Shown piece by piece: positions 3,450 through 62,223 of a DNA stretch of 64,000 bases. Source of the stretch: Cyanidioschyzon merolae (taxonomy: Eukaryota); assembly GCA_000091205.1 (NCBI GenBank), contig AP006485.2. The stretch is one strand, 5' to 3'. The position numbers were made by a program, and so were the translations under genes. How positions within the stretch are numbered: position 1 is the first letter of the stretch; the number at the start of each line of letters is the position of its first letter. A model generated the notes under the pieces. It searched no databases and was not told where the DNA came from. It saw only the letters and a list, made by a program, of their open reading frames with translations.

Positions 3450-4154
3450 GAACCCCGGTTAGACTTTTCGAGTGTATACCATAGAAAAATGGATCACTGT
3501 TGTGAGGTCATTGTAGTTGACGCGTGAACGCGTTCGTGCAACGCTCGGTGCGACTCCACCAGTATCTGCGTCCGTCTATGTGTGTTCGTGTGTATCAGGG
3601 CATATGTTTTTCAACAAGTTCTGCGCACTGCTTTACGACGCACATCAACGCCTGCGAAAAGCGTACACCATACCGTCGATACCGGGACAACGCGCTCAAC
3701 CGCTGCGTCCGTCACTGACACTAGACGTTGAGCCGCGCTCTCAGCTCTCCAGGCATTCATCTGCCGTATTCATGTTGCTGAGACTCCAAGAACTGTAGAC
3801 CTAGCATGACAGTAAATGTTCACGTGCAGAGAGATGAGAAACTGCAGAGAAATACGAACCTTTCATATGTAGATATTAGGGATTGTGTAGCCTGCACAGC
3901 ATATCAAGCTTGTACTGCTCATCTCTACACATCCCATACAAAGCAAAACGAGACCCGGCTCCAGTCTTATATGCCAAATACCTCCTTTCCCGCACCTGCA
4001 ATACCTTGTCAGTTCCATGCGAGTCTCCCATTCAAGAACGTCAAGACGAGAGCCTTGTTGCTACGAAGGTGCCGCGAACACTGCGGCGTCGACCGCATCC
4101 AGAACAATCAGGTTTTCCGTTTAGTTGTTGCCCGAGCGACTGGATGTTTTGGAC
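3450..4154. repeat. 705-bp dispersed repeat, copy 1 (about 98-99% identical to 34454..35157), abutting the 5' end of the EngA-like gene.
   Basis: Direct comparison of the two blocks shows only a handful of substitutions. Six-frame ORFs 3517..3798 / 34521..34802 and 3806.. / 34810.. are near-identical in translation. Confidence 0.9.
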
Positions 4155-8840: not shown

Positions 8841-8899
8841 CGGAACCCCAGCGTCTGGATGCCAGACGGGCGAGTGCTGTCGATACTCGAAGTGTACCC

Positions 8900-9075
8900 G
8901 ACTCTGATGCATCTACGGATGAATCGTTCTCTCGCAGCACCGGCATTGTATGGAGCGGGGAACAGAAAACCAGCACTGTACGCGACTCCGATGCATCTAC
9001 GGATGAATCGTTCTCTCGCAGCACCGGCATTGTATGGAGCGAGGAACAGAAAACCAGCACTGTACGCGACTCCGT
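8900..9075. repeat. 84-bp tandem repeat, about 2.1 copies, in the 3' flank of the THUMP gene.
   Basis: Unit gactc(t/c)gatgcatctacggatgaatcgttctctcgcagcaccggcattgtatggagcg(g/a)ggaacagaaaaccagcactgtacgc repeated head-to-tail, seen as the DSDASTDESFSRSTGIVWS.EQKTSTVR duplication in ORF 8837..9118. Confidence 0.9.
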
Positions 9076-11526
9076 CGTCTCGTACATGGCGCCGTCTTTC
9101 CCCGCATCATACTTGTAGAGCTCTTAGTGGAGACGAATATTGCGCTGTGCATGCGAATGCACGAATCCTCGGACAGTGAATCGCTCTCGGTACATCGCGT
9201 TCGTGCCTGATGATGCCTTGCATTCTGCGAAGGGCGTTCCAAGCGCAACGTTCACGATGCCGCGGCGTTTCACCAGCTGCACTGGAGGATGCTCTCGTGC
9301 AGCACTTGCTCGCACCTGCTTAACGACTAGAGACGCGTAAGCGCGAAGAACATATCGGGGGCGTCACGTTTTCCTCTGGAGCATGGAGATGGATTTCCTC
9401 CTTTTCGAATTCGGGTCAATACAACGTGTGCATGCACTGGAACCCATTGGATGATTGGATGTTGAAGGCACAGCATCCAGGAATGGAACGATCCCCAAGA
9501 TGCTCATCGTCATCTCTGAATCGAATTCGAAGCGGATGTACTCAGGGTTTCAGGGGCACGTACGGCTCGTGACGGCTGCGGTAACTTGGGCAACCCAAAA
9601 TGGTTTGGATAGTGACGTCCTCGTCATACGTCCTCGATAGAGTGCACGCTCGGAAGCGTCGGATGCATCTCGATAGCACTGGGGTTCGATGAAGCAAACC
9701 TCAGCTGATCCTTTCTGAGACTCGCCGTCCTGGATCCGCTGCGTTTCTTGTACGAAGTATCAGACTGAGACCCGGGCGTTTTGATCTCCAGAATATCGAT
9801 TCTGCAGCGTTGCAATGGCACATCAACTTTACCTCGATGCTGGTGCATCCGTTTGCGCTGCTGACATCCGCGACGTCCGACTCTGACGATTGCCAAGGCC
9901 AGCGTGCGGAGATACGATCGCTGTCGACCTGGCGGATGCTTAGGGAATGCATCTGATGTATGGATATTTTGGAGCAGCCTTGATCGCTTGGATCACGGCA
10001 ATAGACTCTGAAATATTGAATCGTGGAGCACTAGTATCGTCTACGCTTTTCGAAGGGAAATCGTTCGCGGTGTGCATAGAGAATCCGTTCCAGCCCTGCT
10101 GGATGGCTGAAACACCCCATGCGAGCGCCTCGCTCCTGGCGAGGATCCCATGTCCCGTTCCATGGGAACTGATGGTTTTGCATCCGTATTATGCCGTGCT
10201 TCAGCGAAATAGCCACACTGAGTATGAAACGATTCCTTCGAAAGTTCACTTGATTCAAAGACGACGTACGCACGGGAAGCTCGAGACATTTTTCCCGACG
10301 CTGATAGGGGCATTCGAGTCTCGCTTGAGAGAGCGCTTGGGCGTATGGTTGCTGGTTGAGCTTCACCAAACCAAGTGTCTCAGATTCGATGACCTAATCA
10401 TGTGATGTTCGATCAGCGCACCGTACTTGACCTTGTGTATACGACTCTGTTTCACACTGTTCTTCTCGATTGGTTTCGTCGTCCAGCTATGCGTATGATA
10501 CGTACCTGCCGTCCTGAGTGCATTGATGGGAATCGTGCAGAATCGATTCCTGCTTGCGTTGTCCGCGCTCGTCGACGAGGCAAGACCGCAGCCCTGACGC
10601 GCCATGAAACGCTCAGCATCGTGGGGTACTCGCGAACGACGAGACTGGTCAGGTGTTTGTTCTTGAAAATCCTTGAACAAGTTGGCGAATGCAGGCATCC
10701 CGTCTTTATACAAACGAAACCGTCGGTGATCCCAGCGCGGTCTCGAGTACTCGTAATCGAGATTGTTTGCTCGATCCATTAGGACGTTTGTGTACTCTCT
10801 ACATGAAGCGTAGAAAGCATCCTCTTCAGTGGATTGGGTACTCCGAGTGCAGAGAAGCGCGCGGACGCCACCATTCTAAACGTTTGCATGCATCCTGGCG
10901 TCCAGCATGCCCGACTCTCGATCATACCGATGCCTAGAAAACGTGGGTACCTCCATCCGCTTTCCATTAAGGCCGTCGGCTCCGCCCTCTTAATTTAGAA
11001 GCGCACTGACGGCGGTGATGTGTTTGAATACGGAAACCACGCACACTAGATCGTCTAGCTCTTCACCTATCTTGAGCGATCGACCGTGAGCTTCGTTACT
11101 CGACTCGCGCCAGGTTTCCGTGGAGTGCTTCCACACGGATGTTCACTCGGTCGCTATCGACGCTGTGAATTTCTTTCGTTTTCATCCTTACAGACGAGAG
11201 ACGTTGGGCGAGCTCCGTCGATTCTCTACTCCGCGACGTTGGAGTGAAGTAGGACTGCTAGTAGAGACAAGTCGAAGCGTTCTGAGAAGGCTATCCAGCA
11301 CAATACCCATGTGCCTACGGCGACATCGTGAGCTTTCAGCTCAGTTTTGTTTCGCCCCTGATGCGATGTATAGCAGGAGATCGAAATCTCGATGCAATGC
11401 GCTGTATAGATCGTCGACGAATTGCCTGTAGGATACGTCTTGTCCTGGACAGTGCGAGGTGGACTGCAATCCTCCTTCACTTCAGTCATAATGAAGTACT
11501 CTGATGGTTGCGGAACATCAAAAGGA

Positions 11527-12700
11527 ACAAGTAGATGTGTTCCGTGCCAAAAACAGGTATATTCAAAGAGTGGTTGCGGTCAACAGTAGAGAATGACCGG
11601 TTGATCACCCTAGGGAAAGCAAAACCGTCAAATGTAGTCGCCACGGACGTCCCTGTTCCTCAACAGCATGTTCGTGTGGTCGTGAAGACACCGGGATACA
11701 GTCGCGAAAAAGTCCTAGATTATGCATGGCCATCTTGCACCGAAATCGCAACGACAGCCTTCCTGGAGCGTCGCTATAGGTATGAAGCACAGTGACTTTG
11801 ATTTGTTTTTTTTTCTGTGGGTGAGACTTCCTTTCGAAGATATGGTCGGAGCGTATGCCGGCATTCGCGGAACAGGGCGCCCATTGTATGTAAATTCGAT
11901 TTAGATGAGAACGAGGATATCACGATCAGTTCGAGTTGCAGTGGATTCACTCTGCGGCCTCAGATTCGCTCGAGGAGAAAGCTCGTACAACGACACGAAC
12001 AGCTTTGTCGAATTCTTGAAGACTTTTCCGGACGTTCGATGACGTCCTTCTATGTTACAACCTGGCGTTTGACCATTCTTCTTGCGTTCACGCTTTTGCC
12101 GATTCAAACGGGAATAGAGCAGCTTTTCATTCCACTGTACGCTCCGTAATCCAGGCCCAGTGAAAGAGCGTTCTCCATCTTGATACGGTATGATCGCTTC
12201 ATTGGGCGAATCGCTGGAGTGTTCAGCACGCGGTGACACACCAGGCCATATGCCGTTGTTCTTCCGCGAGTCCATCCACCGCAGAGAGCGTCCTCACCTG
12301 GGTGCAGAGACAGGTGCATTCATTTTCAAAAAATATAAGGGATGAACTGAGATGTACACGTCCGGAGGCCGATATAGAGGGAAGGCAGCGGACCGCTTCG
12401 GCGATCGAAAATCACGGAGAGCCAACAGAGCACCAAATGGTACAGAAGGCGCGAGTTCCTGGAATCCTTGCATTGGCGAATCCAACCAGCGGCAAGAAAT
12501 GCAAAGAGCTTTCCATCCGAGACATGAACGCTACTTTCAATATTAGGAGATCTGCGACGCTGAAGACGATACCCGAGGTGCTTACGCAATGTAATTTTGC
12601 AGGGCAGCATCTCAGGCTCGAAGTGTACAAGGAGACGCTGAAGCTGATAGCAGGCGGCCGGATATAAATACACTGGGAGGCGTCTGCGGGCGGAGATTAA
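11527..12700 (+). mobile_element. Internally deleted, decayed copy of a TnpB/Fanzor-like transposon: N-terminal fragment plus RuvC-III end plus conserved 3' tail.
   Basis: ORF 11535..11795 is homologous to ORF 48240..48608 and to the end of the 45089..44415 ORF (FLERRYRYEAQ / FLERRDRYEAQ / FLDRELERKAE). ORF 12233..12667 carries a degenerate RuvC-III (ELSIRDMNATFNIRR; compare NRDFNAAINIRR at 43030). The 3' non-coding block 12553..12700 is conserved with the other two copies. Confidence 0.6.
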
Positions 12701-15104
12701 TTTACCAAATAATCGAAAAATTTTTTGTTTTCTTTACATGCACGTCCATGGGCATTTATCTAGTATACAGGACGCAAATCGAATAATCGTTTGGAGAGGC
12801 TAGCGCGCTCGCACACGAGCAGGGAATCCGCTTTAGCAGTGGCGTGCTCTGTTCAGCACAATACGTCGCTGAAAAAGGTGCAAGGCAGGCAGGCATCGTA
12901 TTCCAACTATCCTCCTGGAAACGCGTCCGCCAGTGCGAGGCTCAGAGCAACGACATGAGCCTGGGCGATCCGGAGCGACGCTCGCACGCGTTGCTAACCC
13001 GCTTCCGAACTCGCCACCAAGCGGTTTCTTTTCTGCTGCTAGGAGCTCATGAATTGGCTGCATTGACTCGCGAAGAATCCCATCCGTCACTCGTATTTTT
13101 TTTCTGAGCCAGAACAGTGAGGCTTTTTTTTTGGCGTATAACGTCCCTGAGGGTACCTCTCGTGAAGCGCTCGAGATTAACGTGTGTATGGTTTCTGATT
13201 TTGGTTTGAAGTTTCCTTAACGTATGCGCTGTAGAGCCCAGGTCGCCGAGATGCCACTGCGACTCGTCACAGGATTCTAACACATGCGTGTGCAAATGAC
13301 AGGTGCAACGATACGGAAGTATTGCATCTTCTGTACCGTGTATCCGTTGTGTGGTTGCATATGGGTTTCGTCGACAAATTCCGGAGCAATGTGGACAGCT
13401 GGCTGCCCTGTCGCCAGCATTCCTGCTTAAACTTGCTTGACGAGGTGCGTCATAGAGAGAGAGAGAGGCGAAACCAGGATCCCTCTAATAAGAAGCTACG
13501 TGATCCACCACGGTATTCTGTACGTTTCGGTACCGCGGATGCGAGCGACTCTGCTATTGAACCGTGATCGCAGTGAAAACGTTTCACAACAGAAATGACG
13601 ACTTCGACTGGATTGCACCGGACAGAACAGAACGGCACGAAGAGAAGCTCCGCGCTAGTCACAGCTGCGTTCTCCTCGACGGTTTTTGAGTGGTGGAAAA
13701 CGGCGGTGTCTAAACACAGGACATGTTTGTTTGGAAATGAGGAGCCACGAAGAGTGTTTCGACGGAGGTTAGGGTGCTTAACGCACTCGTCGCTTTGGCG
13801 GCGTTCAGGCGACCACGCAACGGACTCGTCGTCTGGGCAGGTACTGTTGCGATATTTGTTTGTCTCGTCTTTCCGAACAGCATTTTTGCCCTCTATGAGT
13901 TCCTATACGCAGGTCTGTTATTTGTCCCGAAACAAGTCTCACCGTTTGAGACTACGACCCGTTCAAACTGTAACAGTGTTCGCATTTCAATACAATATAG
14001 AGAGTAAGTGGGTCTGCGCGCGATAGTCTCACATTGAAGCATACCGGTTTCTTTGTCCATCGGTGTCCGGTTATCACCTTTCGTATCAGCGGGGCGGACA
14101 ATTCAGATCCTATGGTTCCTTTGGTAGGATTTCTCAGAGGTCGCTTGTAGTGAAATGAATAGACAAGAGGAAACAGTCCCGTAGAAAGAGTTCAATGAAC
14201 TCTGTTTCGGATGCACGATGAGAAGGATATGGACGACGAGAAATATGGTCGATCCGCGTGATGAAAGCAGACTTACGGACATCTACAAGTAGGGACGTTT
14301 TTTACACGCTCATAGTGACAGTGTAACATGTTTCCACCACCTTTCTCCAATCTGCAGGATACATTCCTGCTGTCGAACAACTAAGAGAAAAACAATCATA
14401 AACAAAAGGGCATGCAAATATATGTGCTCCAAAAATCGCTGCTCCTATAATAGGGCGTCTCGTGTGGACGCCAGCAAGTGCCTTCTCTCGATCGCTGTTC
14501 TTGAGCAACAGCGTATCGATGTAGCGAACTAGATTCTCCCAGATGCACAGCCTCTGGTGATGACCAGGAAGTAGACCTCGGGCATTAGCCCAGGATGCAG
14601 GACCCGACCAACCCCAGTGCAGCGTACCCGGATCAAGTCGGCGCTCGATCAATGCTCCAGTGCCCGGTACACCAGCTCGTGATCGCGCTTGAAACTTTGG
14701 AACGCAGATTCCATCCTGGGATCCGCGGAATGATTTTACCCGATCTGGTGTCCATGGGTGATACTAGCTACATCCAGGTACGTGCACGAACAATCGCCGC
14801 GACTCCAGATGCAGATATCGAAAGGCAAATCCTTCGTTATAGCAGACGCACCCTTGCAAGCACATGTACGAGTATATCTATATGCGCAGGCGCGCTCATT
14901 CGTCCGAGCATAAACATGCACGCCTGAATATACGCACGTACGTCCATGTATACATCCATAGACTTTCAAAGGAGGCAGAGGGCATGAACAGTGGTCTTTT
15001 TGTGAAATAACATCTCTGCATACCTGCAAGGCAGGCGGTAGTGATCCCCCACCCCGCCCCCGCCCCCCAACCCCGAGAAACATTAACATGCCCTGCCGCA
15101 GCGC

Positions 15105-27443: not shown

Positions 27444-29229
27444 TGGCCTGGAAAGAGACGCTTGCCAGTGGACACGTGTCTCGTTGCTGCCCAGGTACGC
27501 GAATCGCCCGCGGGATTTGCGCGAAAGCTACGGCGGACCTGCTTCTGGTGTAACGTCGACATCTCGCTTTCTTTTGACAAAGCGTTTACACGGACGTGTG
27601 ATTCCCTCATGTGCGGTTGATAGCAGCAGTCGCGAAAAGTTCTATCGATTGATTTACCTACATCTAAATTGCACGATGCATAATTTTCCTCGGAGGTACC
27701 AGTTCTTTCGTACGTTCGAAAGTGTACCGAGCCTGTTGTGAGCGTCAGCGATAGCACTTGGAGCGCAGTTGCTGACGCATGACGAAAACGGAACAGCTTT
27801 GCCGTACCACGGAGCGTGTCAGCTCCCGGGCCGGTATCATCGATGCACGGCACGCGTGCGCGACACGATACTGGCCTGGTTGCATGATTCTCGCGACGGT
27901 AACGCCATGACTGTAGGCGAGGTGCAGGCACGCGCGTCGTGGGGCTTCTTCTACGCATCATAGGGACGCATTCCGCCGAATCAAATGTTATGGATGGAGA
28001 TTGCCTGATACCGGAGAAACAACCAAGTGGACCCTCGGTTACGTTTCACTGGTGATGATGCGCGATTCCGTGGACGAGCGCGTCCATGTTGCTCTGCGTC
28101 CAGGGCGGGTCAAGGAGCCTGTTCTGCTGTCGCCATGAGCTCATCGCGTTTGGTGTGTCGGGCCGACGATTGCTAGCTGCTAAGTTGAAGTGCTTGGTGT
28201 GGCGGAGTTAGGTTATGCGTGTGCACGTGCCGCAGGTGAATACCGCTGTCTCTTTTTTCGACTGAGCGTCGCGCGGTCAAGCCCCGGCAGGATGCATCCC
28301 GCTCTGCTTTCTATGCTTGAGCACGCTGGACGCTGCTCCATAGCATGATGCGAGCATCGCGTTGGCGTTCACTGTCGTGCCGTGCTCCTCCGTCAGCCGT
28401 TCCTTCCAGACTCATCGAGTGCACGCCTCATTCGTGGAAGTGGAGCGTATTATAGAGTTTTGCCCTGAGTGCCGCCCGGCAGACGACCAAACATGGCATC
28501 GAAGCATCGTTCAGGGAAGTCAGCTCGACTGGACTCGGCAATCAGAGACTCGGGTTTTCCTCGAACTCTAGGTTTAGCATCAGCAGTGCAGCACCGAACG
28601 AAATCCAACGTACGAGCACGCGGATCGTACCTCGAATATGGACTCCTGGGTCTAGAGCAGCGGGGAACCGTCGCGTTCCCAGGGATTCATGATGAGCGCA
28701 TCACAACTGCCCGCTCGGATGCTTGTCTAGCTGGGCGTTCAACCACAGCGAGTGAGTTTGAATTCATGCTGGCACGGATACCGACCAAGGAATACCGTCT
28801 TGCGGTGTGCGACCGCGCACGCATTGGACATCGTCTCTGCACAGCATCAATGCTGTACAAGATGCATGCATCCGCTCATGTTGTGCACCAAACGGCCGGA
28901 GTTGCGCACTTACGACCCGCTTGTCCCCCAAAGCATGTGCAGCCTACGCCAAGATCTTTCTCTGTGGAGAATCGATGTTGTTGGAGATATCCAGCGCTGC
29001 TTGCATGAGCAAAACAACAGACAAAATGCCTAACGCGCCGCGCTGGCAGGACGCGAGATATTTTTCGCAGCTGCGTGACACGGCCGGCGGAGGCGGCGGC
29101 TGGCATTTCTCGCGCCTAATCTGAAATTCGAGCAAGATTTGAGGTTGAACGGCTGGACGTGTAACGCTACGCAGGCACACGGTACAAGACTTTGGAGCAA
29201 CTTGAGTTTTCCAGGAACACTGGAAGTGT

Positions 29230-31822: not shown

Positions 31823-34445
31823 TGGAATGCAGAAGGCAGCACAACCTTTTTGGTTTTTCTCGAAGATATTTAAAATACAGAATTGGAACATTTTGATTCG
31901 AGAACGATCATGGTAGGGTTTTATGTGTTCATGGCTCGCTTGAGACATAAAAGCCTCATACAAGTCAGCCATTCGACGGTTAGCGGGTGGATAAACCACC
32001 CTTCTCGTCGTCGTCGTTACCCATTACGTCGTGCATCCAGACCAGAACCCATCGACTGCGATCTGCACGACTGTCTACTCGTCGATCCGTCCCACTACAT
32101 ACCTCCTGTGAGCAAAGATATCAGAGGAGACACAGCGTGTGAAGTTTCGCGCATTTGGCACAAACAATGGCGAGCAGACACGAGTGCACGAAGGAGAAAG
32201 CACGCTCCTGGAGGATATCGTCAGGCGTTGAAGGACACACGATCGATTTCGAACTGAAACGCGAAAGCCTTGAAGTGGAGCGGCGGATGCTCGTCTCAGT
32301 CGACGAGACGTTATTCAGGACAAATGGTCAAACGATGTGTGCGTACTCAATGTGGAGCAAACTGTTGTGTATGAATAAACGGAAACCGAGCGTGACGTCA
32401 ACGCGAGCTCTCGGGGCAGTTCAGTGGAGCGCTTTCCCACATAAATCACAGAATCGATACGCTCGTTCAACACAGCATCCTTCGTTGAACCACGCTTCGT
32501 GGCTTCTCCGTCCCGCATTCCTCTGTCCAGCTGCTGCACGGCAACTTCGCTTTCCGCCACTCACAAGCGGTCAACAAGTGCGCTGCTGAGACTGGCGACG
32601 AGCTGCCCTTCGTGACAACCTCTGTTCCCTCGTTCAGTGCAGTCGAATGCCTCCGCTCTGTTCGCAGAGGCAACGTCTGCGCTCTCGGATCCATAGACGG
32701 GTCATTCGCGTGCACGTTGCGGTTCGTTCATAAACCGTTATTTCGACAGCCGTGCTCGCTCTCCTCAATCGCTAATCTGCTCTGTTGGTTCTGTGTTCGA
32801 GAACCGGGGCGAACGGAAGGCCGCGCTTCGGTCCATGAGCGCGCACACCGTGGAAAAGAGGAGCAAGCGCCAAGTAGGCAGCAGTGGATACATATATCTT
32901 TAGGAAAGGTACGCTCCGGTCCCGTCGTGCACCCCGTGCGCCCGAGTCCTGATGAAAACTAACCGATATGGCGCATCGTGATGATACACATGCCAACCTG
33001 CCAAATGGAGGACTCGCACTGGAAACCACCAGGCAGGCAAAGAAGCAAGAATGCTCCGGAATACGGGGACGAGCAGCGCCTGGAAGGAAAAATATCGGTG
33101 CAGCTATTGCTCAGTCTGGAACGGTCATCATAGCCTCGCTACCGAAACACACATCAACCGGGAGAATCACCCAAAAAGGAAGATACAGGGCGCCCTAAGG
33201 GGATGCGTAGCTTCTGACTCGAGCAGGGCTCGCTCCGCTTCCTTCGCTTTGACGTACCCTGTCAGGGTACGGCGCGTCGGCATCACCGGTGCAGCGCTGT
33301 CAGCTGTTCCAAAGCGTCTTGAAGGTTTCGATCAAATCGTCGTGCGACAACGTAACGGACACTCAGGGCAGACGATGCGAACCGTCCTGATTGTAGGATC
33401 AGTGATGTGTATACACGTTTCACAGAGGACCTCGAAGTTTCGGTGCGCCTGTCGTCGCTTCGAAGACCTACAGCGTCGGTGCCAATACGTACCAACGTGA
33501 ATCCCCGAAAGCCGAAATCATAGGCAGGCTCGTGTCGGGCGCTTCATGAGGCGCTGTATGTGCGTATTCGCGCCTCAGCTCACGGGCCCAGACTCGTGGC
33601 GACTAGTTCAAATGAATCTGCGTAACAGATACGCTACGAGTTTCCAGGCGGCGCATGTGAACCGTCTTTGGCAAGAGTACATGGGAGCGCGCCGGGGTTC
33701 ACAACGGTGTCTATCGTAAAGAGGCAGGAAACTTGCATTCGGCAACGTGTTGAATGCGTTGCAAGAAAAGGAATGGACTTGAACGTCGCGTTGTTTGATC
33801 GTAGCGTATTGGGCTGAGCGTGCTGTAGGACGCGAAAAGCGCACCCCTGTTCACTCGACAAGAGCGTACACCGAGTGCAGGAATCTGTGCTGCACGGTAT
33901 CTATCGAATCGTTCAGAACGACATACGAACACCGAGAGTGGGCGTGCACTGTGAAACTGGTAGAGAGGAAAACGCTGAAACACGGCCGAATGCACTTCAT
34001 GGTGTCCAGTACGCTGAGCGAACTTCACATACCGAAGCACTCGATGATCAGAGTCGTTGCTGTAGCGTACATCCAGCAGCCGTCGTAGGGAGACGCTCAA
34101 GCACATGCTGCACCGAGACTCTAATGCATCGATGAACCTACGGAAATGTCTTGCGCTTCCAGAATGTCTACCGGGTTGATGTCGAGCGAACGTTCAAGTA
34201 ACTGTTTCGAACTCGGACGAGGGAACGTCTCGAAACAATGAAGCCTTTGGGTGTGAAAAAATGTGGCAAGGGTAGCTGGCATTGGATTCTCGCCTGAAGC
34301 AAGGCACTGGTATGGTACATTTCGCAATGCAAAGTGACTGAAGCGCCCTATGTCTATATAGGTACCGGTACCAGTGTTCCTGTGTCATTGGTGAGCAGTA
34401 AAGATGATCCAGTATTCGATACTTTGAGCATACTCCATTTCGATG
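31823..34445. repeat. 2,623-bp direct repeat, copy A (about 98-99% identical to 59601..62223; constant offset 27,778 bp).
   Basis: All six-frame ORFs in 31.8-34.4 kb recur at +27,778 with 0-2 aa differences (for example 31883 / 59661, 32612 / 60390, 33051 / 60829, 33875 / 61653). Boundaries read from sequence (tggaatgcag ... catttcgatg). Confidence 0.92.
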
Positions 34446-34453
34446 TTTCCGGG

Positions 34454-35157
34454 GAACCCCGGTTAGACTTTTCGAGTGTATACCATAGAAAAATGGATCA
34501 CTGTTGTGAGGTCATTGTAGTTGACTCGTGAACGCGTTCGTGCAACGCTCGGTGCGACTCCACCAGTATCTGCGTCCGTCTATGTGTGTTCGTGTGTATC
34601 AGGGCATATGTTTTTCAACAAGTTCTGCGCATTGCTTTGCGACGCACATCAACGCCTGCGAAAAGCGTACACCATACCGTCGATACCGGGACTACGCGCT
34701 CAACCGCTGCGTCCGTCACTGCCACTAGACGTTGAGCCGCGCTCTCAGCTCTCCAGGCATTCATCTGCCGTATTCATGTTGCTGAGACTCCAAGAACTGT
34801 AGACCTAGCATGACAGTAAATGTTCACGTGCAGAGAGATGAGAAACTGCAGAGAAATACGAACCTTTCATATGTAGATATTAGGGATTGTGTAGCCTGCA
34901 CAGCATATCAAGCTTGTACTGCTCATCTCTACACATCCCATACAAAGCAAAACGAGACCCGGCTCCAGTCTTATATGCCAAATACCTCCTTTCCCGCACC
35001 TGCAATACCTTGTCAGTTCCATGCGAGTCTCCCATTCAAGAACGTCAAGACGAGAGCCTTGTTGCTACGAAGGTGCCGCGAACACTGCGGCGTCGACCGC
35101 ATCCAGAACACTCAGGTTTTCCGTTTAGTTGTTGCCCGAGCGACTGGATGTTTTGGA
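34454..35157. repeat. 705-bp dispersed repeat, copy 2. It lies 8 bp after the end of 2.6-kb repeat A and abuts the 5' end of the USP25/28-like gene.
   Basis: See copy 1. Identity resumes at gaaccccggttagac and ends at ...gactggatgttttggac in both copies. Confidence 0.9.
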
Positions 35158-35169
35158 CTTTTCCCGCAG

Positions 35170-42701: not shown

Positions 42702-42884
42702 TCTTGCCACGAGCGCTCGGATCCAGGCCTTGAGTAACGTCTGAGATGCGAGCACTGCCCGTTGTGTGATTGTTTGCGTGCGAGGGTGCGTTTGTGTCGG
42801 TATACCACCGGTAGAGCGGGCGCACAGTCGAACGATGCCACCGGTGTACAGAAGCGGCGAGAAACCCGCTTTCGAGGAAACGTC

Positions 42885-45089
42885 TCCAAGTGATGTGCAG
42901 ACGCCCCCTCGTCTTTCTCGGCGGGCCATCTTCTACTGATTCCAAGTTTTTCTCATATAGTTCGACTTGGGAAGGTTGTCCAACAACGTTCCCTCCTGTG
43001 GACTCTGGAGGTCTTTTCTCCATTACCAATCATCTCCGTATATTGATTGCGGCGTTAAAGTCTCGGTTAAAAACCTCCATCCGTTTCTTGCGATTGGAAG
43101 TTGTACTCACTAATGCAAATAGCCCCTGCACTTTTGCCCTCCTTTCCATTTGCTCCTCCGTCAGCGGTCCGTACTTTGCTATATCCTCATGGCTCCTCTG
43201 GCACTTTTCCATCTCCACCCTCTGAAGTGTACACCCCAGCTCGTGGTGTGTATAGGACGTTCGGAACTCATCTATCGGTATTATAACAAAACGCCGTGCA
43301 CACTCCTTGCACGTTCTTGTCGTTGGAGCTGGTGTACACCCTTTTTGGGTCTTCCATCGCCCTGCTCCGTATGCCACTACCAGCCTCTGATTTTCATCCT
43401 CCTTCAGGGCACTCAACTGATTGAAAAAATTCGCGAGCGCCCGCTGCTTTCCACAATACAAATTCATTCGCAAACGAGCCCACCGGGGCTTTGCATACTC
43501 CTCGCACAGCGTATCTCAATGAGGAACGCGAACTTCCATGAATTTTCGAAAAGCTGCAAAGTCCGCTCCTCGGCTCGTCACCTCGCTCAAAGCTTCCAGG
43601 TGATCCTTCATTCCTACATTCCATGCAGCAATTTCCTTCCTTGCATTCATTGTTCCCGGTTCTCGATAGTATATTGCTCTCGAGAACCTCAAAAAAGACG
43701 CATGTCTTTCTGACGTAAGTTACCATCAGCACTATCTTCCGTACGCTTCGGTGCTGCGATGGTTATGATATTCGTATTCCCAGGGTCCGCGCCGACGACA
43801 AAGTCGTTATCCTGCACTTTCTGCGTGGCAAAATCCTCCTCCTTCTCATCTTCATGCATCGCCACGCCAACGACAAAGTCGTTAGCTTGCACCTCCTGCG
43901 TCGCAGCACCCGCCTCCTTCTCATCTTCATCGTTCGTCACGCCAAAGACAAGGTCGTTATCATGCACCTCCTGCGTCGCAGCATCCTCCTCTTTGTTTTC
44001 TTCATGCTTCGCCGCGTGAACGACAAGATCGTTATCCTCTACCTCCTGCATCGCTGGATCCGACTCCTTCTCATCTTCATGCTTCGTAACGGGCGAAGCC
44101 GAGGGCGGAACTGGACGATTTTTCTTCAAGCGCCGATATTGTACACACGTGGCTACTCCATCGGTTTCGATCATCCCAGTGAATACCTTTTGTTTGCTCA
44201 CTTCAGATGTTTGAAATCGAAGATATTCTTCCAGTACGTCTCACGATTTTCGCCGGAGAACTCCTCCTTGTTAGCATTGAACACCGGACTGATCTCCCTC
44301 ATGATGCCGTAAAGGATTCTGGAGTCCATACTCACAAAATGTGACTTGATGTTGCACATTGGAACCACGTTGAAGCGCTTCCCCACTAGGGCAGCCTTCC
44401 ATCTCTCCCACGCTTCATTTTTCCCCACTCAGCTTCACCTCTGCCTTGCGTTCGAGTTCACGGTCCAAAAACACGAAATACCGCAGGACGAGGCGATAGT
44501 ATCTTTCCTTATCTTCTCTCAACTCTGATATCTTGTCTGTTGGATTCGCTAACTCCAAGACTGCGCGGTGCTCTTGTATAGCCGCACGGATTACAGAAGC
44601 TTCATTTGTGCCCCTGCGTGACGCCTTCTCTCCGACGAATTCGATCTCATCTTCATGCTTGCGATCGTTCGTGATGCCGTTGATAATCGCCCATTTTCCG
44701 TTACGAGAGATGCCCGGGTACAGTGCAAACACGGCGCGTATCATGAAATGTTCGAGGTTCATTCTGAAATGGTTCTTCAGATTCGTCAGGTACTTCATCG
44801 CCCCATATGTGTAGATATCCGCGTCACCACTGTATCGGGTACCCTCGAGGAGGAATTCCGCGAAGTTTTCGTGGAGGACTTTCACCCGCTTATTTTCCCT
44901 CCGCGCTTCCTCTATGCCAAGCATCAAGTGACGAAAAAATGTGTTGTCGAAAAACTCGTCCGGAAGCTCGACCGTTTCCATGTTCGTCACGTAGCGATAC
45001 ATCTCCCTCACCAAATGCGTCGGTCCTGAAGAAGCCTTTATCATACTCATGGAGTACGACTCGAGACGGTTTTTGATGGCGTCCCGCAA
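42885..45089 (-). mobile_element. Near-full-length TnpB/Fanzor-like (OMEGA-type RNA-guided nuclease) transposon copy. The coding region is broken into 5 consecutive overlapping reading frames (pseudogene, or possibly short introns).
   Basis: Minus-strand ORFs 45089..44415, 44428..44198, 44201..43689, 43732..43394 and 43473..43030 are contiguous and overlap by a few to 80 bp. ORF-c ends with a RuvC-I-like VVGADPGNTNIITIAAP. The last ORF has the TnpB hallmark ...FVIIPIDEFRTSYTHHELGC...(degenerate Zn finger)...NRDFNAAINIRR* (RuvC-III DxNAAxNI). The 3' non-coding tail 42885..43027 is conserved with the two truncated copies. Confidence 0.65.
43791..44090. repeat. 75-bp tandem repeat x4 (encodes 25-aa acidic units) inside the Fanzor-like ORF, just N-terminal to the RuvC-I motif.
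   Basis: Units start at 43791, 43866, 43941 and 44016 (gcc(g/a)a(c/a)gacaa(a/g)gtcgtta...cttcatg...). Translated on minus strand as ..HEDEKEEDFATQKVQDNDFVVG.. x4. Confidence 0.9.
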
Positions 45090-45642
45090 CTTTTCCTTCT
45101 ACGGATCCTTGATATATTTAAGAACACAGGCTTTCACCACTATCTCGTTGTACAGTTGCCTTTCTTGCCGCCTTCGACGTAGAACCTCGCCCCCTTTTGA
45201 TTCCTCATCACTTCCTGTTCCTTTTCGCTCCGCCATGTTTATCCTTCTTTTCCGACGGCCGGCGATATCGGCCCTCCGGGATCCTCCACTTCCATTTCCA
45301 TGACTTTCCTTTTTTTATTTTTTTTGAAAACGAACGCTCTTTGAACGCTTCTGTTATATACTTCGAAAAAACACTTGAATATACTCAATTGAGGGTCGGA
45401 ATAGGATGGAACAAAAAACCTATACTTTGCTACGACCTCAACGCGAATACAACTTTTACAGTAGAATAGCACGCCAGTGATCAGGATCACTGTTCCCCTC
45501 AGGAGCGACCAGAGCGTCGTGTCTCGTGCCCGCCGGATCTGCCAGGTGCGCGTGCACGCGCAGCGGCTGACATGCGCCCCGCCGCCGATCAGGAGATTGC
45601 TTCTGGATATGTCTATCTCAAAGCGTGATAACCTGTTGCTGA

Positions 45643-47529: not shown

Positions 47530-48229
47530 ACCAAGGGCAGCATCGGCGATCGACACAGCGCTCTGCACGTTGAGCGCGACTCGTGTGCTTGCCAATGACC
47601 GGGCTTGGAGTCGCAGGGGAACCTGCTCGTCAGCTATCAGGTGCCGTGGACCTGGTCGGGATCGGTAGCATCTGCAGTCGTGCGGTCCAAGCGTCAGACA
47701 GCACCGTGCTGACAACAAACGCCTACTTGGCGCGCTTGTACGACAGGACGCTGTGCAGAAGCATGTTTGGTGTCGTTTTCGACGATCTGAGGATCGATGC
47801 AAGGTGCGTCTTCGAGGAAGGCATGCTCGGACGGCAAAACTTGGGTACCAAGGGCACTTCGATGCCTGTTCGCATCGATCGCTGGTATGCTGCGTATCTG
47901 GTAGAGGCGAATACCGTACATAGAGGTATGCGCTGGTGCGTCCGTTCACCGTCTCGATCCGCTGCTGGTACGCGGCTGCGTTAGAATTTCGAGTACCCGA
48001 CGCTGTTACGACGTAAAGGCGCTTCGGTTGATAGTCTTTCAACTCAATTTTGTTTCATCGCGGCTACGGTATATAGGAGGAGGACGAAATCACTAGGTAA
48101 TGTTCTGTATAGATTGTGGAGGAATTGCATACGGCATATGTATTCTTCACTGAACAATGCAATGATGATTGCATTGCACCTCGATGTCAATCATACCACT
48201 ATACGCAGATGCTGAACGAGCACTGAAAG

Positions 48230-49395
48230 AAACAAGTATATGCGCTCCGGGCCGAAACCTGATATTCTCAAAGCCTGCCTGCAATCAGTGATAGAAAACG
48301 ACCAGTTGATCAATTTACGGGAAGCAAATGCGTCCATAGTAGCCACCACGGGCGTCTCTGTTTCGCAACAGCTTATTCGCGTGATCCTGAAAACACCGGG
48401 ATCCAATCGCAATAAAGTGCTAGTTCATTCACAGCCAGCTTCTACCGAAATCGCAGGCACGGTGTTCCTGGAACGTCGCGATCGGTATGAAGCACAGGAA
48501 CATCAGTTTGTTTTCTCACTCGATGAGACTTGCTTCAAACGAGACAATCGCAGCGTAGATGAATACTTGCTGAGCGGGAGCCCGTTGCTCGTACGCTCGA
48601 AATCGTAGAGAACGTCGACATCATCATCTGTTCTAGCTGCGGTGGATTCATTTGGCTGCCTCAGTTCCGCTGAAGAGAACACTCATGCAGCAGCGCCCTC
48701 TTTTTGTAGAGTCATTGAAGACTTGTCCCAGACGTCTGGTGAAGTCCTTCTATTGGACATAGTGGTATTTAGCCGTTCTGCTTCAGTTCGAGCATTTTTA
48801 GATTCTTTCGAGGGGTAGAGCTGGTTTCATTCCTTCTTCTCAACCATGGTTCATCCCCATAGAAGAAGAGTTTTGCGTCCTGAATCGTCACGATCGCTCC
48901 ACCGGGCGAATTGATGAAGCGTTCAGCACATGGTGACCAACCGGGGCACATTTGGTCTTTATTCCGCATGTGCTGCTCGATGCGGGAAGGTCGTCATCTC
49001 AGGCTATAAACAAATGCGTTCATTTTCGAAAAATCTAAGGGATGAGCTGGAATATACACCCTAGGATGTTGAGTTGGAGCGAGGCCAGTGGAGCGTTTCG
49101 TCGACAGATCAGCACGAAGAGCTAACAGAGCACCCAATGGCACAGCGTACACGGCTTCGTGGTCTCCTTGTATCGATTAGTTCAACCAGTGGCAACAAAC
49201 ACATGGAGTTCACGAACCGAGACTTTAACGCTGCGATCAGTACAAGACGGTGTGCGATGCTAAAGACGATACCCGATTGGCAGACGCGATCTAACTTTGT
49301 GGAGCAGCCTCTTAGGCATAAAATAAACAACGAGAAAATGAAACCGATCGCAGACAGCCGGTCTAAACAGACTGGAAGGCGTCTTCGAGTGGATT
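48230..49395 (+). mobile_element. Second internally deleted, decayed copy of the TnpB/Fanzor-like transposon.
   Basis: ORF 48240..48608 is homologous to ORF 11535..11795 (about 55% aa). ORF 49074..49442 has MEFTNRDFNAAISTRR (RuvC-III). The 3' tail 49252..49395 is conserved with the 12553..12700 and 42885..43027 tails. Confidence 0.6.
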
Positions 49396-49795
49396 TTCAT
49401 CTACGCTCCATGGTTTTGAGGCATTCCTTTTTGTCTCACTGACGATGAGCCTAATCGAGAAGGAAATCAAGGCCAGTATCTGATATCGAAACTTGTTGCT
49501 GCCCAACAGATAGATTTAGGGTTCGTTCTTCTGTATCAGAAAACCTAGAGTGCGGCATCCGCGTATTCTGTATCCAGATATACTCACCCGCGAATAGCTG
49601 CCGCACTGCCGTGGCATTCGGGCGATATCTGTCTTTCAGACAACATTCTCGCTTCCACGCAAAGCCCCTGACGCACAGGCCGCGGGCAGCACAACCAGTA
49701 CCTGCAGAGAACATCGTGCAACGCTCCCCAGCGTTTGAAATCTGTCGAGGTTGCCGTGCTCTCGCTCCGATGAAAGCTCCAAACGCATGCAAAGC

Positions 49796-55035: not shown

Positions 55036-55310
55036 AGCACTCTCTCATCGGATGAGCGAGCGTCTCGCTGTTCCACGTGCCTGCATCATAGATGAAGCGT
55101 CCAGGCATATGGACTCAAGTTGCTGACCGAACTTTCTCTGATAGCGCCTCAGCTGGGTGGCATTGCCTTCGGGATAGCACTCTCTCATCGGATGAGCGAG
55201 CGTCTCGCTGTTCCACGTACCGGCATCATAGATGAAGCGTCCAGGCATATGGACTCAAGTTGCTGACCGAACTTTCTCTGATAGCGCCTCAGCTGAGTGG
55301 CATTGCCTTC
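55036..55310. repeat. Tandem duplication of about 140 bp, 2 copies at about 98% identity, spanning the stop codon / 3' end of the PLP-deaminase-family gene.
   Basis: agcactctctcatcggatgagcgagcgtctcgctgttccacgt...ggcattgccttc occurs twice head-to-tail. ORFs 55045..55248 and the end of 55185..56330 both translate ...GNATQLRRYQRKFGQQLESICLDASSMM(Q/P)(A/V)RGTARRSLIR. Confidence 0.9.
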
Positions 55311-59600: not shown

Positions 59601-62223
59601 TGGAATGCAGAGGGCAGCACAACCTTTTTGGTTTTTCTCGAAGATATTTAAAATACAGAATTGGAACATTTTGATTCGAGAACGATCATGGTAGGGTTTT
59701 ATGTGTTCATGGCTCGCTTGAGACATAAAAGCCTCATACAAGTCAGCCATTCGACGGTTAGCGGGTGGATAAACCACCCTTCTCGTCGTCGTCGTTACCC
59801 ATTACGTCGTGCATCCAGACCAGAACCCATCGACTGCGATCTGCACGACTGTCTACTCGTCGATCCGTCCCACTACATACCTCCTCTGAGCAAAGATATC
59901 AGAGGAGACACAGCGTGTGAAGTTTCGCGCATTCGGCACAAACAATGACGAGCACACACGAGTGCACGAAGGAGAAAGCACGCTCCTGGAGGATATCGTC
60001 AAGCGTTGAAGGACACACGATCGATTTCGAACTGAAACGCGAAAGCCTTGAGGTGGAGCGGCGGATGCTCGTCTCAGTCGACGAGACGTTATTCAGGACA
60101 AATGGTCAAACGATGTGTGCGTACTCAATGTGGAGCAAACTGTTGTGTATGAATAAACGGAAACCGAGCGTGACGTCAACGCGAGCTCTCGGGGCAGTTC
60201 AGTGGAGCGCTTTCCCACATAAATCACAGAATCGATACGCTCGTTCAACACAGCATCCTTCGTTGAACCACGCTTCGTGGCTTCTCCGTCCCGCATTCCT
60301 CTGTCCAGCTGCTGCACGGCAACTTCGCTTTCCGCCACTCACAAGCGGTCAACAAGTGCGCTGCTGAGACTGGCGACGAGCTGCCCTTCGTGACAACCAC
60401 TGTTCCCTCGTTCAGTGCAGTCGAATGCCTCCGCTCTGTTCGCAGAGGCAACGTCTGCGCTCTCGGATCCATAGACGGGTCATTCGCGTGCACGATGCGG
60501 TTCGTTCATAAACCGTTATTTCGACAGCCGTGCTCGCTCTCCTCAACCGCTAATCTGCTCTGTTGGTTCTGTGTTCGAGAACCGGGGCGAACGGAAGGCC
60601 GCACTTCGGTCCATGAGCGCGCACACCGTGGAAAAGAGGAGCAAGCGCCAAGTAGGCAGCAGTGGATACATATATCTTTAGGAAAGGCACGCTCCGGTCC
60701 CGTCGTGCACCCCGTGCGCCCGAGTCCTGATGAAAACTAACCGATATGGCGCATCGTGATGATACACATGCCAACCTGCCAAATGGAGGACTCGCACTGG
60801 AAACCACCAGGCAGGCAAAGAAGCAAGAATGCTCCCGAATACGGGGACGAGCAGCGCCTGGAAGGAAAAATATCGGTGCAGCTATTGCTCAGTCTGGAAC
60901 GGTCATCATAGCCTCGCTACCGAAACACACATCAACCGGGAGAATCACCCAAAAAGGAAGATACAGGGCGCCCTAAGGGGATGCGTAGCTTCTGACTCGA
61001 GCAGGGCTCGCTCAGCTTCCTTCGCTTTGACGTACCCTGTCAGGGTACGGCGCGTCGGCATCACCGGTGCAGCGCTGTCAGCTGTTCCAAAGCGTCTTGA
61101 AGGTTTCGATCAAACCGTCGTGCGACAACGTAACGGACACTCAGGGCAGACGATGCGAACCGTCCTGATTGTAGGATCAGTGATGTGTATACACATTTCA
61201 CAGAGGACCTCGAAGTTTCGGTGCGCCTGTCGTCGCTTCGAAGACCTACAGCGTCGGTGCCAATACGTATCAACGTGAATCCCCGAAAGCCGAAATCATA
61301 GGCAGGCTCGTGTCGGGCGCTTCATGAGGCGCTGTATGTGCGTATTCGCGCCTCAGCTCACGGGCCCAGACTCGTGGCGACTAGTTCAAATGAATCTGCG
61401 TAACAGATACGCTACGAGTTTCCAGGCGGCGCATGTGAACCGTCTTTGGCAAGAGTACATGGGAGCGCGCCGGGGTTCACAACGGTGTCTATCGTAAAGA
61501 GGCAGGAAACTTGCATTCGGCAACGTGTTGAATGCGTTGCAAGACAAGGAATGGACTTGAACGTCGCGTTGTTTGATCGTAGCGTATTGGGCTGAGCGTG
61601 CTGTAGGACGCGAAAAGCGCACCCCTGTTCACTCGACAAGAGCGTACACCGAGTGCAGGAATCTATGCTGCACGGTATCTATCGAATCGTTCAGAACGAC
61701 ATACGAACACCGAGAGTGGGCGTGCACTGTGAAACTGGTAGAGAGGAAAACGCTGAAACACGGCTGAATGCACTTCATGGTGTCCAGTACGCTGAGCGAA
61801 CTTCACATACCGAGGCACTCGATGATCAGAGTCGTTGCTGTAGCGTACATCCAGCAGCCGTCGTAGGGAGACGCTCAAGCACATGCTGCACCGAGACTCT
61901 AATGCATCGATGAACCTACGGAAATGTCTTGCGCTTCCAGAATGTCTACCGGGTTGATGTCGAGCGAACGTTCAAGTAACTGTTTCGAACTCGGACGAGG
62001 GAACGTCTCGAAACAATGAAGCCTTTGGGTGAGAAAAAATGTGGCAAGGGTAGCTGGCATTGGATTCTCGCCTGAAGCAAGGCACTTGTATGGTACATTT
62101 CGCAAGGCAAAGTGACTGAAGCGCCCTATGTCTATATAGGTACCGGGACCAGTGTTCCTGTGTCATTGGTGAGCAGTAAAGATGATCCAGTATTCGATAC
62201 TTTGAGCATACTACATTTCGATG
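59601..62223. repeat. 2,623-bp direct repeat, copy B (partner of 31823..34445).
   Basis: See copy A. Downstream of copy B the 705-bp module is absent (sequence diverges right after catttcgatg). Confidence 0.92.

Follow-up and report, generated by a model that had tools for sequence, protein, structure and literature searches.

Near-identical 2.6-kb direct repeats in Cyanidioschyzon merolae are probably two insertions of a non-autonomous Fanzor1-type element

Results

Two long direct repeats in a 64,000-nucleotide stretch of the Cyanidioschyzon merolae nuclear genome (GenBank assembly GCA_000091205.1, contig AP006485.2, from chromosome 3 of strain 10D; the whole stretch is called 'the window' below) are probably two insertions of one 2.6-kb non-autonomous element of the Fanzor1 (TnpB-like) group, internally deleted and pseudogenised. 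The Fanzor1-type group is the main interspersed repeat of the C. merolae 10D nuclear genome. An interspersed element whose ORF is truncated and resembles WSV486 has been described there in 253 copies, with an average length of 3.2 kb and amounting to about 5% of the genome (PMC1955436). Fanzor1 CMe-1A was described from about 150 copies with approximately 80% identity to their consensus, without terminal inverted repeats (TIRs) and with target-site duplications (TSDs) that could not be determined, and a Fanzor1 is also encoded by WSSV (Bao & Jurka 2013, PMC3627910). Taken together, the two papers suggest that the CMe-1A group is the 253-copy WSV486-like element, WSV486 being the WSSV Fanzor1. 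At the level of the family, the repeats thus largely belong to a high-copy element with coincidental local insertions (253 copies, PMC1955436; about 150 of CMe-1A, PMC3627910), a finding that an earlier, sequence-only reading of the window had named as one that would count against its view of them.

Copy A (31823..34445, + strand) and copy B (59601..62223, + strand) are both 2,623 bp long. The 2.62-kb direct repeats on the same strand with a spacing of 27,778 bp that had been read from the letters were recovered at exactly these coordinates by self-BLASTN, and a second repeat search agreed. Over 2,623 bp the copies showed 99.009% identity with 26 mismatches (14 transitions and 12 transversions) and no gaps, and the longest identical run was 347 bp, compared with a simulated median of 360. 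Mismatches were evenly distributed (KS test against a uniform distribution, p=0.81) and identity persisted up to the terminal base at each end of the unit (5'-TGGAATGCAG...CATTTCGATG-3'), beyond which the flanks of A and B were unrelated on either side. The even spread and the complete identity at the ends indicate a single event. Alternatively, ectopic gene conversion could have homogenised two insertions of this lineage that are old and arose independently. In favour of this, the copies share a chromosome and an orientation at a distance of 27.8 kb (conditions that promote ectopic recombination), the family is otherwise old (65-86% identities among other copies) and the identity is restricted to the element. 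Conversion would, however, be expected to leave a mosaic of converted and unconverted tracts, which the even spread of mismatches does not show, and also diverged margins, since a tract needs homology outside it, yet here identity reaches the first and last base. A further, unrelated pair of 705-bp repeats in the window has diverged by about 0.9%, as would sooner be expected if both pairs had moved in one burst, and gene conversion is considered unlikely.

The unit was described earlier as having no long ORF, which is borne out by a longest ORF of 149 aa. A codon-usage log-likelihood score, for which the genes of the window served as training set, was below 0 throughout the unit, compared with +15 to +30 in the neighbouring USP gene, and no Pfam domains were found when its six frames were scanned. 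A coding gene was rejected on the basis of the ORF listing, codon usage and the six-frame Pfam scan, with the exception of Fanzor debris detected by tblastn, for which the query was a translation of the published CMe-1A consensus (the CMe-1 Fanzor1 protein). The better preserved remnant belongs to the RuvC-like C-terminal half (CMe-1 aa 516-650, 32% identity) and lies on the + strand at 33645..34052 in copy A and 61423-61830 in copy B (unit positions 1823-2230; tblastn E 2.7e-15 against the window and 1e-17 against the unit alone; nhmmer E 1.6e-18 against the CMe-1A consensus). It is a pseudogene with in-frame stops in which the DEFRTS motif persists as IESFRTT, and no zinc-finger or final RD motif can be recognised in the unit any more. 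A weak N-terminal remnant (CMe-1 aa 68-206, 25% identity) was located on the + strand at 33174..33608 in copy A and at 60952-61386 in copy B, with tblastn E values of 0.008 and 0.002 when the window was searched and 2e-4 when the unit was searched by itself. Both remnants lie in one frame, interrupted by stops, on the + strand of the unit, and CMe-1 aa 207-515 are missing between them.

The decayed Fanzor coding sequence that is kept thus amounts to approximately 840 bp; because about 930 bp of the ORF are gone, the unit can encode nothing, and the intact Fanzor ORF of about 600-800 aa that characterises an autonomous element is absent from it. A search of the pseudo-ORF against 5.8 billion proteins gave no matches, and an annotated intact close relative is therefore lacking. 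The possibility that the unit is antisense to the Fanzor ORF was discarded, since its own remnants are on the + strand when compared with either the CMe-1A consensus or the protein. An RNA gene in the unit was likewise not supported: neither Rfam at its gathering thresholds nor a tRNA scan gave a match anywhere in the window, and sliding MFE z-scores were unremarkable, the lowest in the unit (about -2.3) being at the 5' end. A guide RNA (omega-RNA) locus would be sought in a structured RNA that overlaps the 3' end of the ORF and the right end of the element; z-scores of the 3' 450 nt ranged from -1.9 to +3.1 on both strands without a conspicuous value, the copies being too few and too diverged for covariation.

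The ends of the unit are corroborated by an old full-length relative of the same lineage (the U lineage) at 9994..14431 on the - strand, with about 65% identity to the unit in three colinear blocks. Unit positions 29-907, 1362-1731 and 1829-2603 aligned to 14395-13520, 13522-13156 and 10776-10010 (nhmmer E 1e-52, 1e-17 and 1e-45, respectively), the longest exact word in common being 12 nt. Minus a nested insert, the old copy measures about 3.06 kb; it holds Fanzor ORF remnants (aa 142-185 and 365-679), and its Fanzor ORF falls where the unit shows merely a 37-98 bp gap. The identity between A and B starts and stops at the same nucleotides as the similarity to the old copy (termini 5'-TGGAGCACAT...ATTGCCGTG-3') within three different sets of flanks, so that all three copies in the window have homologous start and end nucleotides in unrelated surroundings. 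No duplicated bases indicative of a TSD were present in the flanks of the three copies, nor did they share a conserved target motif or TAM (5' flanks ATGA, GTCC and TTTT).

The absence of obvious TIRs from the unit, as first noted, holds for perfect repeats (none of at least 100 bp), and the longest perfect complement between its 5' and 3' ends was 4 nt. In the old U copy, a perfect 8-nt match between the 5'-terminal and 3'-subterminal sequence starts at position 1 (shuffle P 0.005) and is followed by a 3' hairpin, and the CMe-1A consensus has a 10-nt terminal/subterminal match (P 0.0004) with the hairpin GCCGCCA...TGGCGGC after it. In the young unit there is just a bulged, imperfect end match (TGGAATGC/GCAT(AC)TCCA).

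Fanzor-type elements make up 24% of the window, none of them with an intact Fanzor ORF. One complete and one truncated Fanzor-like element had been recognised between the repeats. The truncated one (48035..49406, + strand, in the ARM-CDF spacer) was confirmed, matching CMe-1 aa 575-730 at 40% identity; the supposedly complete one (42830..45563, - strand) proved to be a near-full-length CMe-1A copy (consensus 647-3154, 85-86% identity) with a broken ORF and a 75-bp tandem expansion at 43787-44091, which fills the TMED-ARM spacer. The truncated fragment belongs to another lineage (lineage X), of which a homologous Fanzor1 fragment is nested in the old U copy (11332..12707, + strand), and a CMe-1A-like fragment from the 5' (TE-N2_CMe) part lies at 27575..27835 (+ strand, consensus positions 4-262). 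Protein identities to CMe-1 of 31-40%, the CMe-1A copy excepted, mark at least three deeply diverged Fanzor1 lineages in the window.

The 705-bp module mentioned above, a separate non-coding repeat that was not assigned to a family, is present on the + strand at 3450..4154 and 34454..35158. Its two copies, 31 kb apart, differ at six sites (99.15% identity by self-BLASTN). Comparison of the junctions verified that the module begins 8 bp past copy A and is missing after copy B; the spacer (34446..34453, TTTCCGGG) forms CCGGGG-AA-CCCCGG together with the module start. The second module copy ends 11 bp upstream of the USP start codon (ATG at 35170) and the first 46 bp upstream of an in-frame ATG (4201) of an EngA-like GTPase gene. 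Identity of the module with TE-N2_CMe, the 635-bp 5' part of CMe-1A, was rejected in the absence of nhmmer similarity to the CMe-1A consensus, and nhmmer found no similarity between the module and the rest of the window.

The genes listed earlier between the copies were all found (UCH/USP, NMT, EMP24/TMED, ARM-like, cation efflux, NAD-binding/FNR-like and PALP enzyme), the NMT ORF showing 100% identity to NMT of C. merolae 10D. The repeats do flank a multigene block, as had been claimed; that description failed to recognise the repeat as a transposable element of Fanzor origin. Cyanidiococcus yangmingshanensis and another member of the Cyanidiophyceae share the gene order SRP54-Yip1-o29230-USP-NMT-TMED-ARM-CDF-FNR-PLP-214aa-EMC6-562aa, and gene orientation, too, is kept in both relatives between and outside the repeats. 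For the two genes searched, the best matches outside C. merolae reached at most 70% (NMT) and 85% (PLP) amino-acid identity. The o29230-USP spacer measures 1,990 and 1,878 bp in the relatives and 4,987 bp in C. merolae, where 3,336 bp of it are accounted for by unit A, the 8-bp spacer and the module. Between EMC6 and 562aa, the relatives have 800 and 1,003 bp and C. merolae about 4,380 bp, including the 2,623-bp unit B. Neither the unit nor CMe-1A, the module or Fanzor-like sequence was found at the syntenic loci of the two relatives. Since synteny is conserved and the spacers of the relatives are short and free of repeats, the repeats are best seen as two insertions into intergenic spacers. 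Judged by gene order, the comparison shows the 25-kb block to be ancestral, neither made nor moved by the repeats.

Three further explanations are to be weighed against these results. The unit could be a non-coding gene (a lncRNA locus, for instance) or a regulatory region of the host that was segmentally duplicated and kept for its function; it has no coding capacity, and the interspersed elements of C. merolae are reported to be transcribed (Nozaki et al. 2007, PMC1955436). This is very unlikely given the Fanzor ORF debris inside the unit, boundaries that match the ends of an older copy of the transposon, the lack of anything similar in the syntenic spacers of relatives, the lack of an Rfam match in the window and ordinary RNA folding. 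Nor does the pair resemble a segmental duplication, its identity being bounded by family termini, as the third copy shows, with unrelated flanks.

Long direct repeats around a discrete block might also be the ends of one large LTR-like or composite element, or have arisen together with a duplication or translocation of the block. The block and the genes outside it are, however, in ancestral order and orientation, as in two other genera, housekeeping genes on both strands fill its interior, where an LTR element would have gag/pol, PBS and PPT, the pair has no flanking TSD of 4-6 bp (AAATGA...CAGCAA), its termini are TG...TG (TGG...ATG) and not TG...CA, and LTR retrotransposons are not known in this genome (PMC1955436), which makes such an origin extremely improbable. 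Lastly, the assembler might have misplaced or duplicated one copy, since long repeats of near identity are notoriously prone to misassembly. The copies, however, differ at 26 fixed sites, each is set in unique flanks along which the conserved synteny carries on, and the genome is reported to be 100% finished, telomere to telomere (PMC1955436); the probability of an artefact is negligible.

Discussion

The closest known counterpart of the repeated unit, here interpreted as a transposed Fanzor1 derivative, is CMe-1A of the same genome, whose full-length form is likewise about 3 kb long, intergenic and mostly equipped with decayed ORFs, with an ORF homologous to the RuvC-like half of Fanzor1/TnpB and neither TIRs nor detectable TSDs. 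Against the CMe-1A consensus (3,169 bp), solely positions 2469-3018 of the consensus align to the unit, at 61% nucleotide and 32% amino-acid identity; as this is the best-conserved region, the unit represents a lineage separate from CMe-1A, and the identity of about 80% over most of the length that marks CMe-1A sensu stricto was not found. The ends also differ (TGGAATG...TTCGATG in the unit, CGATGAC...AAAGGCG in CMe-1A), ORF aa 207-515 are lacking from the unit, and identity is 99% between A and B but about 80% between CMe-1A copies and their consensus.

Bacterial TnpB-only elements of the IS200/IS605 type likewise have a TnpB-family ORF as their sole ORF, defined asymmetric ends and no TIRs or TSDs, and their non-autonomous derivatives likewise depend on a transposase in trans. 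The unit differs from them in its eukaryotic host, in having no known TnpA partner, in the lack of a conserved target-adjacent motif among the three window copies and in the lack of clear subterminal hairpins in the young unit. We know of no transposase for the C. merolae Fanzor elements, nor, to our knowledge, is a RepHel gene known from C. merolae. Resemblance to the Chlamydomonas Helitron2 elements with Fanzor1 (CRe-1, 2 and 3; PMC3627910) extends to Fanzor1 cargo, frequent internal deletions, a lack of classical TIRs, a 5' end starting with T, end complementarity followed by a 3' hairpin (in the old U copy and the CMe-1A consensus) and a small repeat abutting the element end head-to-tail (unit A and the module; TE-N2 and CMe-1A). 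Unlike Helitron2, in which an asymmetric inverted repeat of 8-15 bp pairs the 5' terminus with a site 20-30 bp from the 3' end and autonomous members encode RepHel, the young unit has an imperfect, bulged end match, variable-length TSDs are absent, and there is no preference for a TTTT target (one of three copies). Solo or paired LTRs and composite transposons share with the pair the long direct repeats around a DNA block, but not its syntenic gene interior, its lack of TSD and of TG...CA ends, or the fact that each repeat is a complete transposon relic.

How the pair arose can be outlined as follows. A may have given rise to B or B to A, or both may stem from a near-identical master, recently as judged from the divergence of about 1%, by a copying process that would recognise the ends of the element and leave neither TSD nor TIR. 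Such copying would point to mobilisation in trans by machinery encoded elsewhere. Among candidate mechanisms, a single-strand or rolling-circle one (HUH-type, IS200/IS605- or Helitron2-like) is tentatively favoured; because the match in the unit is bulged and its structure thermodynamically ordinary, the ends hint at this mechanism rather than point to it. The youth of A and B (1%) within an old family, alongside the module pair (0.85%), is suggestive of a mobilisation in trans that was recent and may have been a local hop over 28 kb. The fuller proposal, that ORF-less Fanzor1 derivatives were recently mobilised in trans by an HUH or rolling-circle mechanism and that the unit and module pairs belong to one burst, is doubtful, if somewhat less so than gene conversion. 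The bracketing of the 25-kb block would be a by-product of insertion and not a function.

As direct repeats, A and B are formally recombination substrates and form a potential substrate for homologous recombination, which is efficient in C. merolae. Recombination between them would be expected to give a deletion allele with the junction ...GCTTTAAATGA-unit-CAGCAACATGTCC... and a reciprocal circle with the junction ...AGTGAGTCC-unit-TTTCCGGGGAACC...; a circle of a single unit, if formed, would join CATTTCGATG directly to TGGAATGCAG. NMT and other housekeeping genes in the block are expected to be essential, and a haploid deletion product would lose them. For gene-targeting designs near USP, NMT and EMC6, the presence of 2.6-kb repeats with 99% identity is a caveat.

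C. merolae is usually portrayed as almost without active transposons. The odd-looking structure in the window comes down to two copies of a known Fanzor-type interspersed repeat and implies no special biology of the block. Where the published catalogue has one Fanzor family for C. merolae, the window shows more lineages. What stands out is the youth of A and B relative to their family: the pair is far younger, and its junctions are therefore clean, with precise ends and neither TSD nor TIR. Such junctions were probably unobtainable for CMe-1A in the original description, owing to the high diversity of its copies. A young non-autonomous pair in a finished 16.5-Mb genome is convenient material on how Fanzor1 elements spread without a transposase of their own, and if the unit was indeed mobilised in trans recently, the junctions of this pair would be the best available material on the spread of Fanzor1.

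Geometry and divergence of the repeat pair

Self-BLASTN of the window aligned positions 31823-34445 (copy A) with 59601-62223 (copy B) over 2623 bp, with 26 mismatches and 0 gaps (99.01% identity), on the same strand and 27,778 bp apart, which bore out the 2.62-kb direct repeats and their spacing as described in the sequence-only reading. The flanks of A and B were unrelated on both sides. The 26 differences (14 transitions and 12 transversions) were evenly distributed along the repeat, here called the unit (KS test against uniform, p=0.81), and the longest identical run was 347 bp (simulated median 360). An assembly artefact is a very unlikely source of the pair, given the unique flanks, the 26 fixed differences and a C. 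merolae genome that has been finished telomere to telomere (PMC1955436). The earlier remark that the repeat holds no long ORF was also right: no ORF in the unit exceeded 149 aa, the codon-usage score (trained on the window's genes) was negative along its entire length, and no Pfam domain was detected in any frame. Neither Rfam families nor tRNAs were found in the whole window. A separate 705-bp repeat (the module; 3450-4154 and 34454-35158, both on the plus strand, 99.15% identical by self-BLASTN) begins 8 bp (TTTCCGGG) past copy A yet is missing past copy B, as had been noted.

The unit as a Fanzor1-type element

Searching the rest of the window with the unit by nhmmer (a sensitive DNA search), and reciprocally, revealed a third, older copy in the opposite orientation (9994-14431, minus strand). 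Three colinear blocks, each approximately 65% identical, relate the two: unit 29-907 to 14395-13520 (E 1e-52), 1362-1731 to 13522-13156 (E 1e-17) and 1829-2603 to 10776-10010 (E 1e-45). When the ends of A, B and the old copy were aligned three ways, their similarity set in and broke off at identical nucleotides (in unit orientation, 5'-TGGAATGCAG...CATTTCGATG-3' for A and B, and 5'-TGGAGCACAT...ATTGCCGTG-3' for the old copy), and the flanks formed three unrelated sets. The direct repeat is therefore bounded by the ends of a repeat family, not by arbitrary duplication breakpoints, and segmental duplication was rejected on this ground. No target-site duplication (TSD) or terminal inverted repeat (TIR) was found at A, B or the old copy; the lack of TIRs agrees with the sequence-only reading.

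The unit (plus strand) matched positions 2469-3018 of the consensus of CMe-1A, the published Fanzor1 family of C. merolae (E 1.6e-18). The protein of that family, CMe-1, aligned to the unit in one frame, weakly for aa 68-206 (unit 1352-1786, 25% identity) and with in-frame stops for aa 516-650 (unit 1823-2230, 32% identity, E 2.7e-15); the conserved DEFRTS stretch persists as IESFRTT, and approximately 930 bp corresponding to aa 207-515 are absent between the two pieces. The unit belongs to a Fanzor1 lineage, designated U, as a pseudogenised copy with an internal deletion. With 61% nucleotide identity to CMe-1A in the best region, U is a separate lineage, and the unit was excluded as CMe-1A proper on the same figure. 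A functional Fanzor was likewise excluded (pseudogenised ORF, aa 207-515 gone). The pseudo-ORF had no match among 5.8 billion proteins, and thus no annotated intact close relative. Those features of Fanzor1 repeats that could be tested were all found in the unit, namely a Fanzor ORF remnant, the lack of TIRs and TSDs, and termini common to dispersed copies. No omega-RNA locus was detected in it (its folding was unremarkable, and the window contained no Rfam family).

Insertion into an ancestral gene block

The window's genes, which include a plastid-type EngA GTPase, SRP54 with an N-terminal extension, NMT, a USP-type deubiquitinase and a cation-efflux protein, are all intron-free, with 55% GC. 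Orthologues of NMT and the PLP enzyme in Cyanidiococcus yangmingshanensis were used as anchors, and approximately 20 kb around each was compared; a second relative (GCA_041825655.1 and matching metagenome/SRA contigs) was examined likewise. The window's order of SRP54, Yip1, o29230, USP, NMT, TMED, ARM-like, CDF, FNR-like, PLP, a 214-aa protein, EMC6 and a 562-aa protein, and their orientation, were identical in both relatives. The spacer occupied by the module, unit A and the 8 bp between them was 4987 bp long in C. merolae versus 1990 and 1878 bp at the relatives' loci; the 3336 bp of inserted repeats essentially correspond to this difference. The spacer with unit B measured approximately 4380 bp versus 800 and 1003 bp. 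The TMED-ARM spacer was filled by a CMe-1A copy and the ARM-CDF spacer by a fragment of another Fanzor1 lineage (X). No unit-, CMe-1A-, module- or Fanzor-protein-like sequence was found in the relatives' syntenic loci. Since the relatives have the same gene order with short, repeat-free spacers, the repeats neither created nor moved the block; A and B are insertions into two intergenic spacers of an ancestral block. An LTR pair and a composite transposon were both rejected (ancestral block, no TSD).

Recombination is possible between direct repeats this long (2.6 kb) and this similar (99%), with a 27.8-kb deletion and a reciprocal circle as products. Between A and B lie USP, NMT, TMED, the ARM-like, cation-efflux and FNR-like proteins, the PLP enzyme and EMC6, and a haploid cell could presumably not survive the loss of these genes; owing to this expected lethality, no stable deletion allele is expected to exist. 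A 2.7-kb JGI metagenome contig carries a gene for a PLP enzyme with 85% identity to that of C. merolae, which points to a closer relative, as yet unsequenced, among public metagenomes, one in which the presence or absence of these insertions could be checked.

Other Fanzor-type elements in the window

The CMe-1A consensus (PMC3627910 Additional file 2) was compared with the window at the DNA and protein levels. A CMe-1A copy at 42830-45563 (minus strand) corresponds to consensus 647-3154 at 85-86% identity, with a broken ORF and without the 5' part equal to the repeat TE-N2_CMe; within it, a 75-bp Fanzor-coding stretch (consensus 2117-2195) is tandemly expanded at 43787-44091. The copy takes up its intergenic spacer entirely and overlaps an upstream extension of the TMED ORF. 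An isolated TE-N2-like fragment (27575-27835, approximately 67% identical to consensus 4-262) lies near the Yip1-like gene. Two fragments of lineage X (11332-12707, plus strand, and 48035-49406) each have approximately 39% amino acid identity to CMe-1 and are 69% identical to each other. The old U copy (minus strand) retains CMe-1 aa 142-185 and aa 365-679, and the X fragment at 11332-12707 is nested in it, interrupting its ORF in the opposite orientation; minus this insert it measures 3062 bp, a typical full length for these elements. Altogether, Fanzor-type repeats and the two modules total 15.5 kb (24%) of the 64-kb window, well above the reported genome average of approximately 5%.

Origin of the pair

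Identity between A and B, which have diverged by 1%, reaches the last base at both ends, and the pair would stem from a single end-defined copying event, presumably transposition in trans because the unit encodes nothing. The main rival is that ectopic gene conversion between two older insertions made A and B alike; however, conversion should have left diverged margins or a patchwork of tracts, neither of which is present, and the unrelated module pair diverges equally (0.85% vs 0.99%), which better fits a shared recent mobility episode. The 28-kb spacing of such a transposition may reflect a local hop, depending on the genome-wide number of young copies.

For the chemistry, an HUH-type single-strand or rolling-circle process (IS200/IS605- or Helitron2-like) would be favoured by the lack of TSDs and TIRs and by the ancestral partner of TnpB being an HUH-type enzyme. 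It would also be favoured by Chlamydomonas Helitron2 elements that carry Fanzor1 (PMC3627910), and by complementarity between 5'-terminal and 3'-subterminal sequence, followed by a 3' hairpin, in the CMe-1A consensus and the old U copy. Positions 5-14 of the consensus (GACAAAACGT) can pair without mismatch with ACGTTTTGTC at the ORF stop (10 nt, shuffle P=0.0004), with a hairpin GCCGCCA...TGGCGGC thereafter; the old U copy begins with 8 nt (TGGAGCAC) whose complement, GTGCTCCA, lies approximately 30 nt before the 3' end (shuffle P=0.005), again with a 3' hairpin thereafter. The arrangement recalls Helitron2, whose terminal repeats are asymmetric. The complementarity was found although CMe-1A has been described as lacking TIRs (PMC3627910). 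In the young unit, terminal pairing occurs only in a bulged version and no unusual folding was seen, and no target motif is common to the insertion sites of A, B and the old copy, so that the indications of HUH-type or rolling-circle chemistry are weak.

The 705-bp module and tandem repeats

Both module copies lie in the same orientation directly upstream of start codons of unrelated plus-strand genes, the copy at 3450-4154 ending 46 bp before ATG 4201 of the EngA-like GTPase and that at 34454-35158 ending 11 bp before ATG 35170 of USP, a start backed by orthologue alignment from residue 1. The module is non-coding, and nothing resembling it was found elsewhere in the window, in the CMe-1A consensus or at the relatives' loci; it may represent a mobile promoter/5'-UTR-like repeat, or it may target promoters. 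The junction of unit A, 8-bp spacer and module start (34446-34462, TTTCCGGGGAACCCCGG) contains a near-palindrome, CCGGGG-AA-CCCCGG, which is absent at the left edge of the module copy at 3450-4154 and could be chance or a junction footprint. Two tandem repeats, each 97% identical, were also observed. One (55033-55310), a duplication of approximately 140 bp, overlaps the ACC-deaminase-like PLP gene at its 3' end, and the gene's last 20 or so codons occur twice (by tblastn, orthologue aa 340-359 matched in the gene and at 55170-55111); the other (8893-9074, 84-bp period) lies amid overlapping ORFs of both strands.

Relation to published repeats

The unit is of a kind already known, the Fanzor1-type interspersed repeats of C. 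merolae, and the pair is a real but mostly ordinary finding. The WSSV protein WSV486 is presumably the Fanzor1 of WSSV. A transcribed interspersed element with 253 copies, averaging 3.2 kb, accounts for approximately 5% of the C. merolae genome; its ORF is truncated and bears a weak similarity to WSV486 (Nozaki et al. 2007, PMC1955436). Fanzor1 elements are eukaryotic TnpB-like elements, and those described include CMe-1A, the C. merolae family, and one from WSSV (Bao & Jurka 2013, PMC3627910); CMe-1A has approximately 150 copies, approximately 80% identical to a 3169-bp consensus whose first 635 bp equal TE-N2_CMe, with no TIRs and with TSDs left undetermined in that study. Mildly new against the literature consulted are a very young pair of ORF-less copies with clean junctions and the coexistence in the window of at least three deeply diverged Fanzor1 lineages, compared with the one family catalogued.
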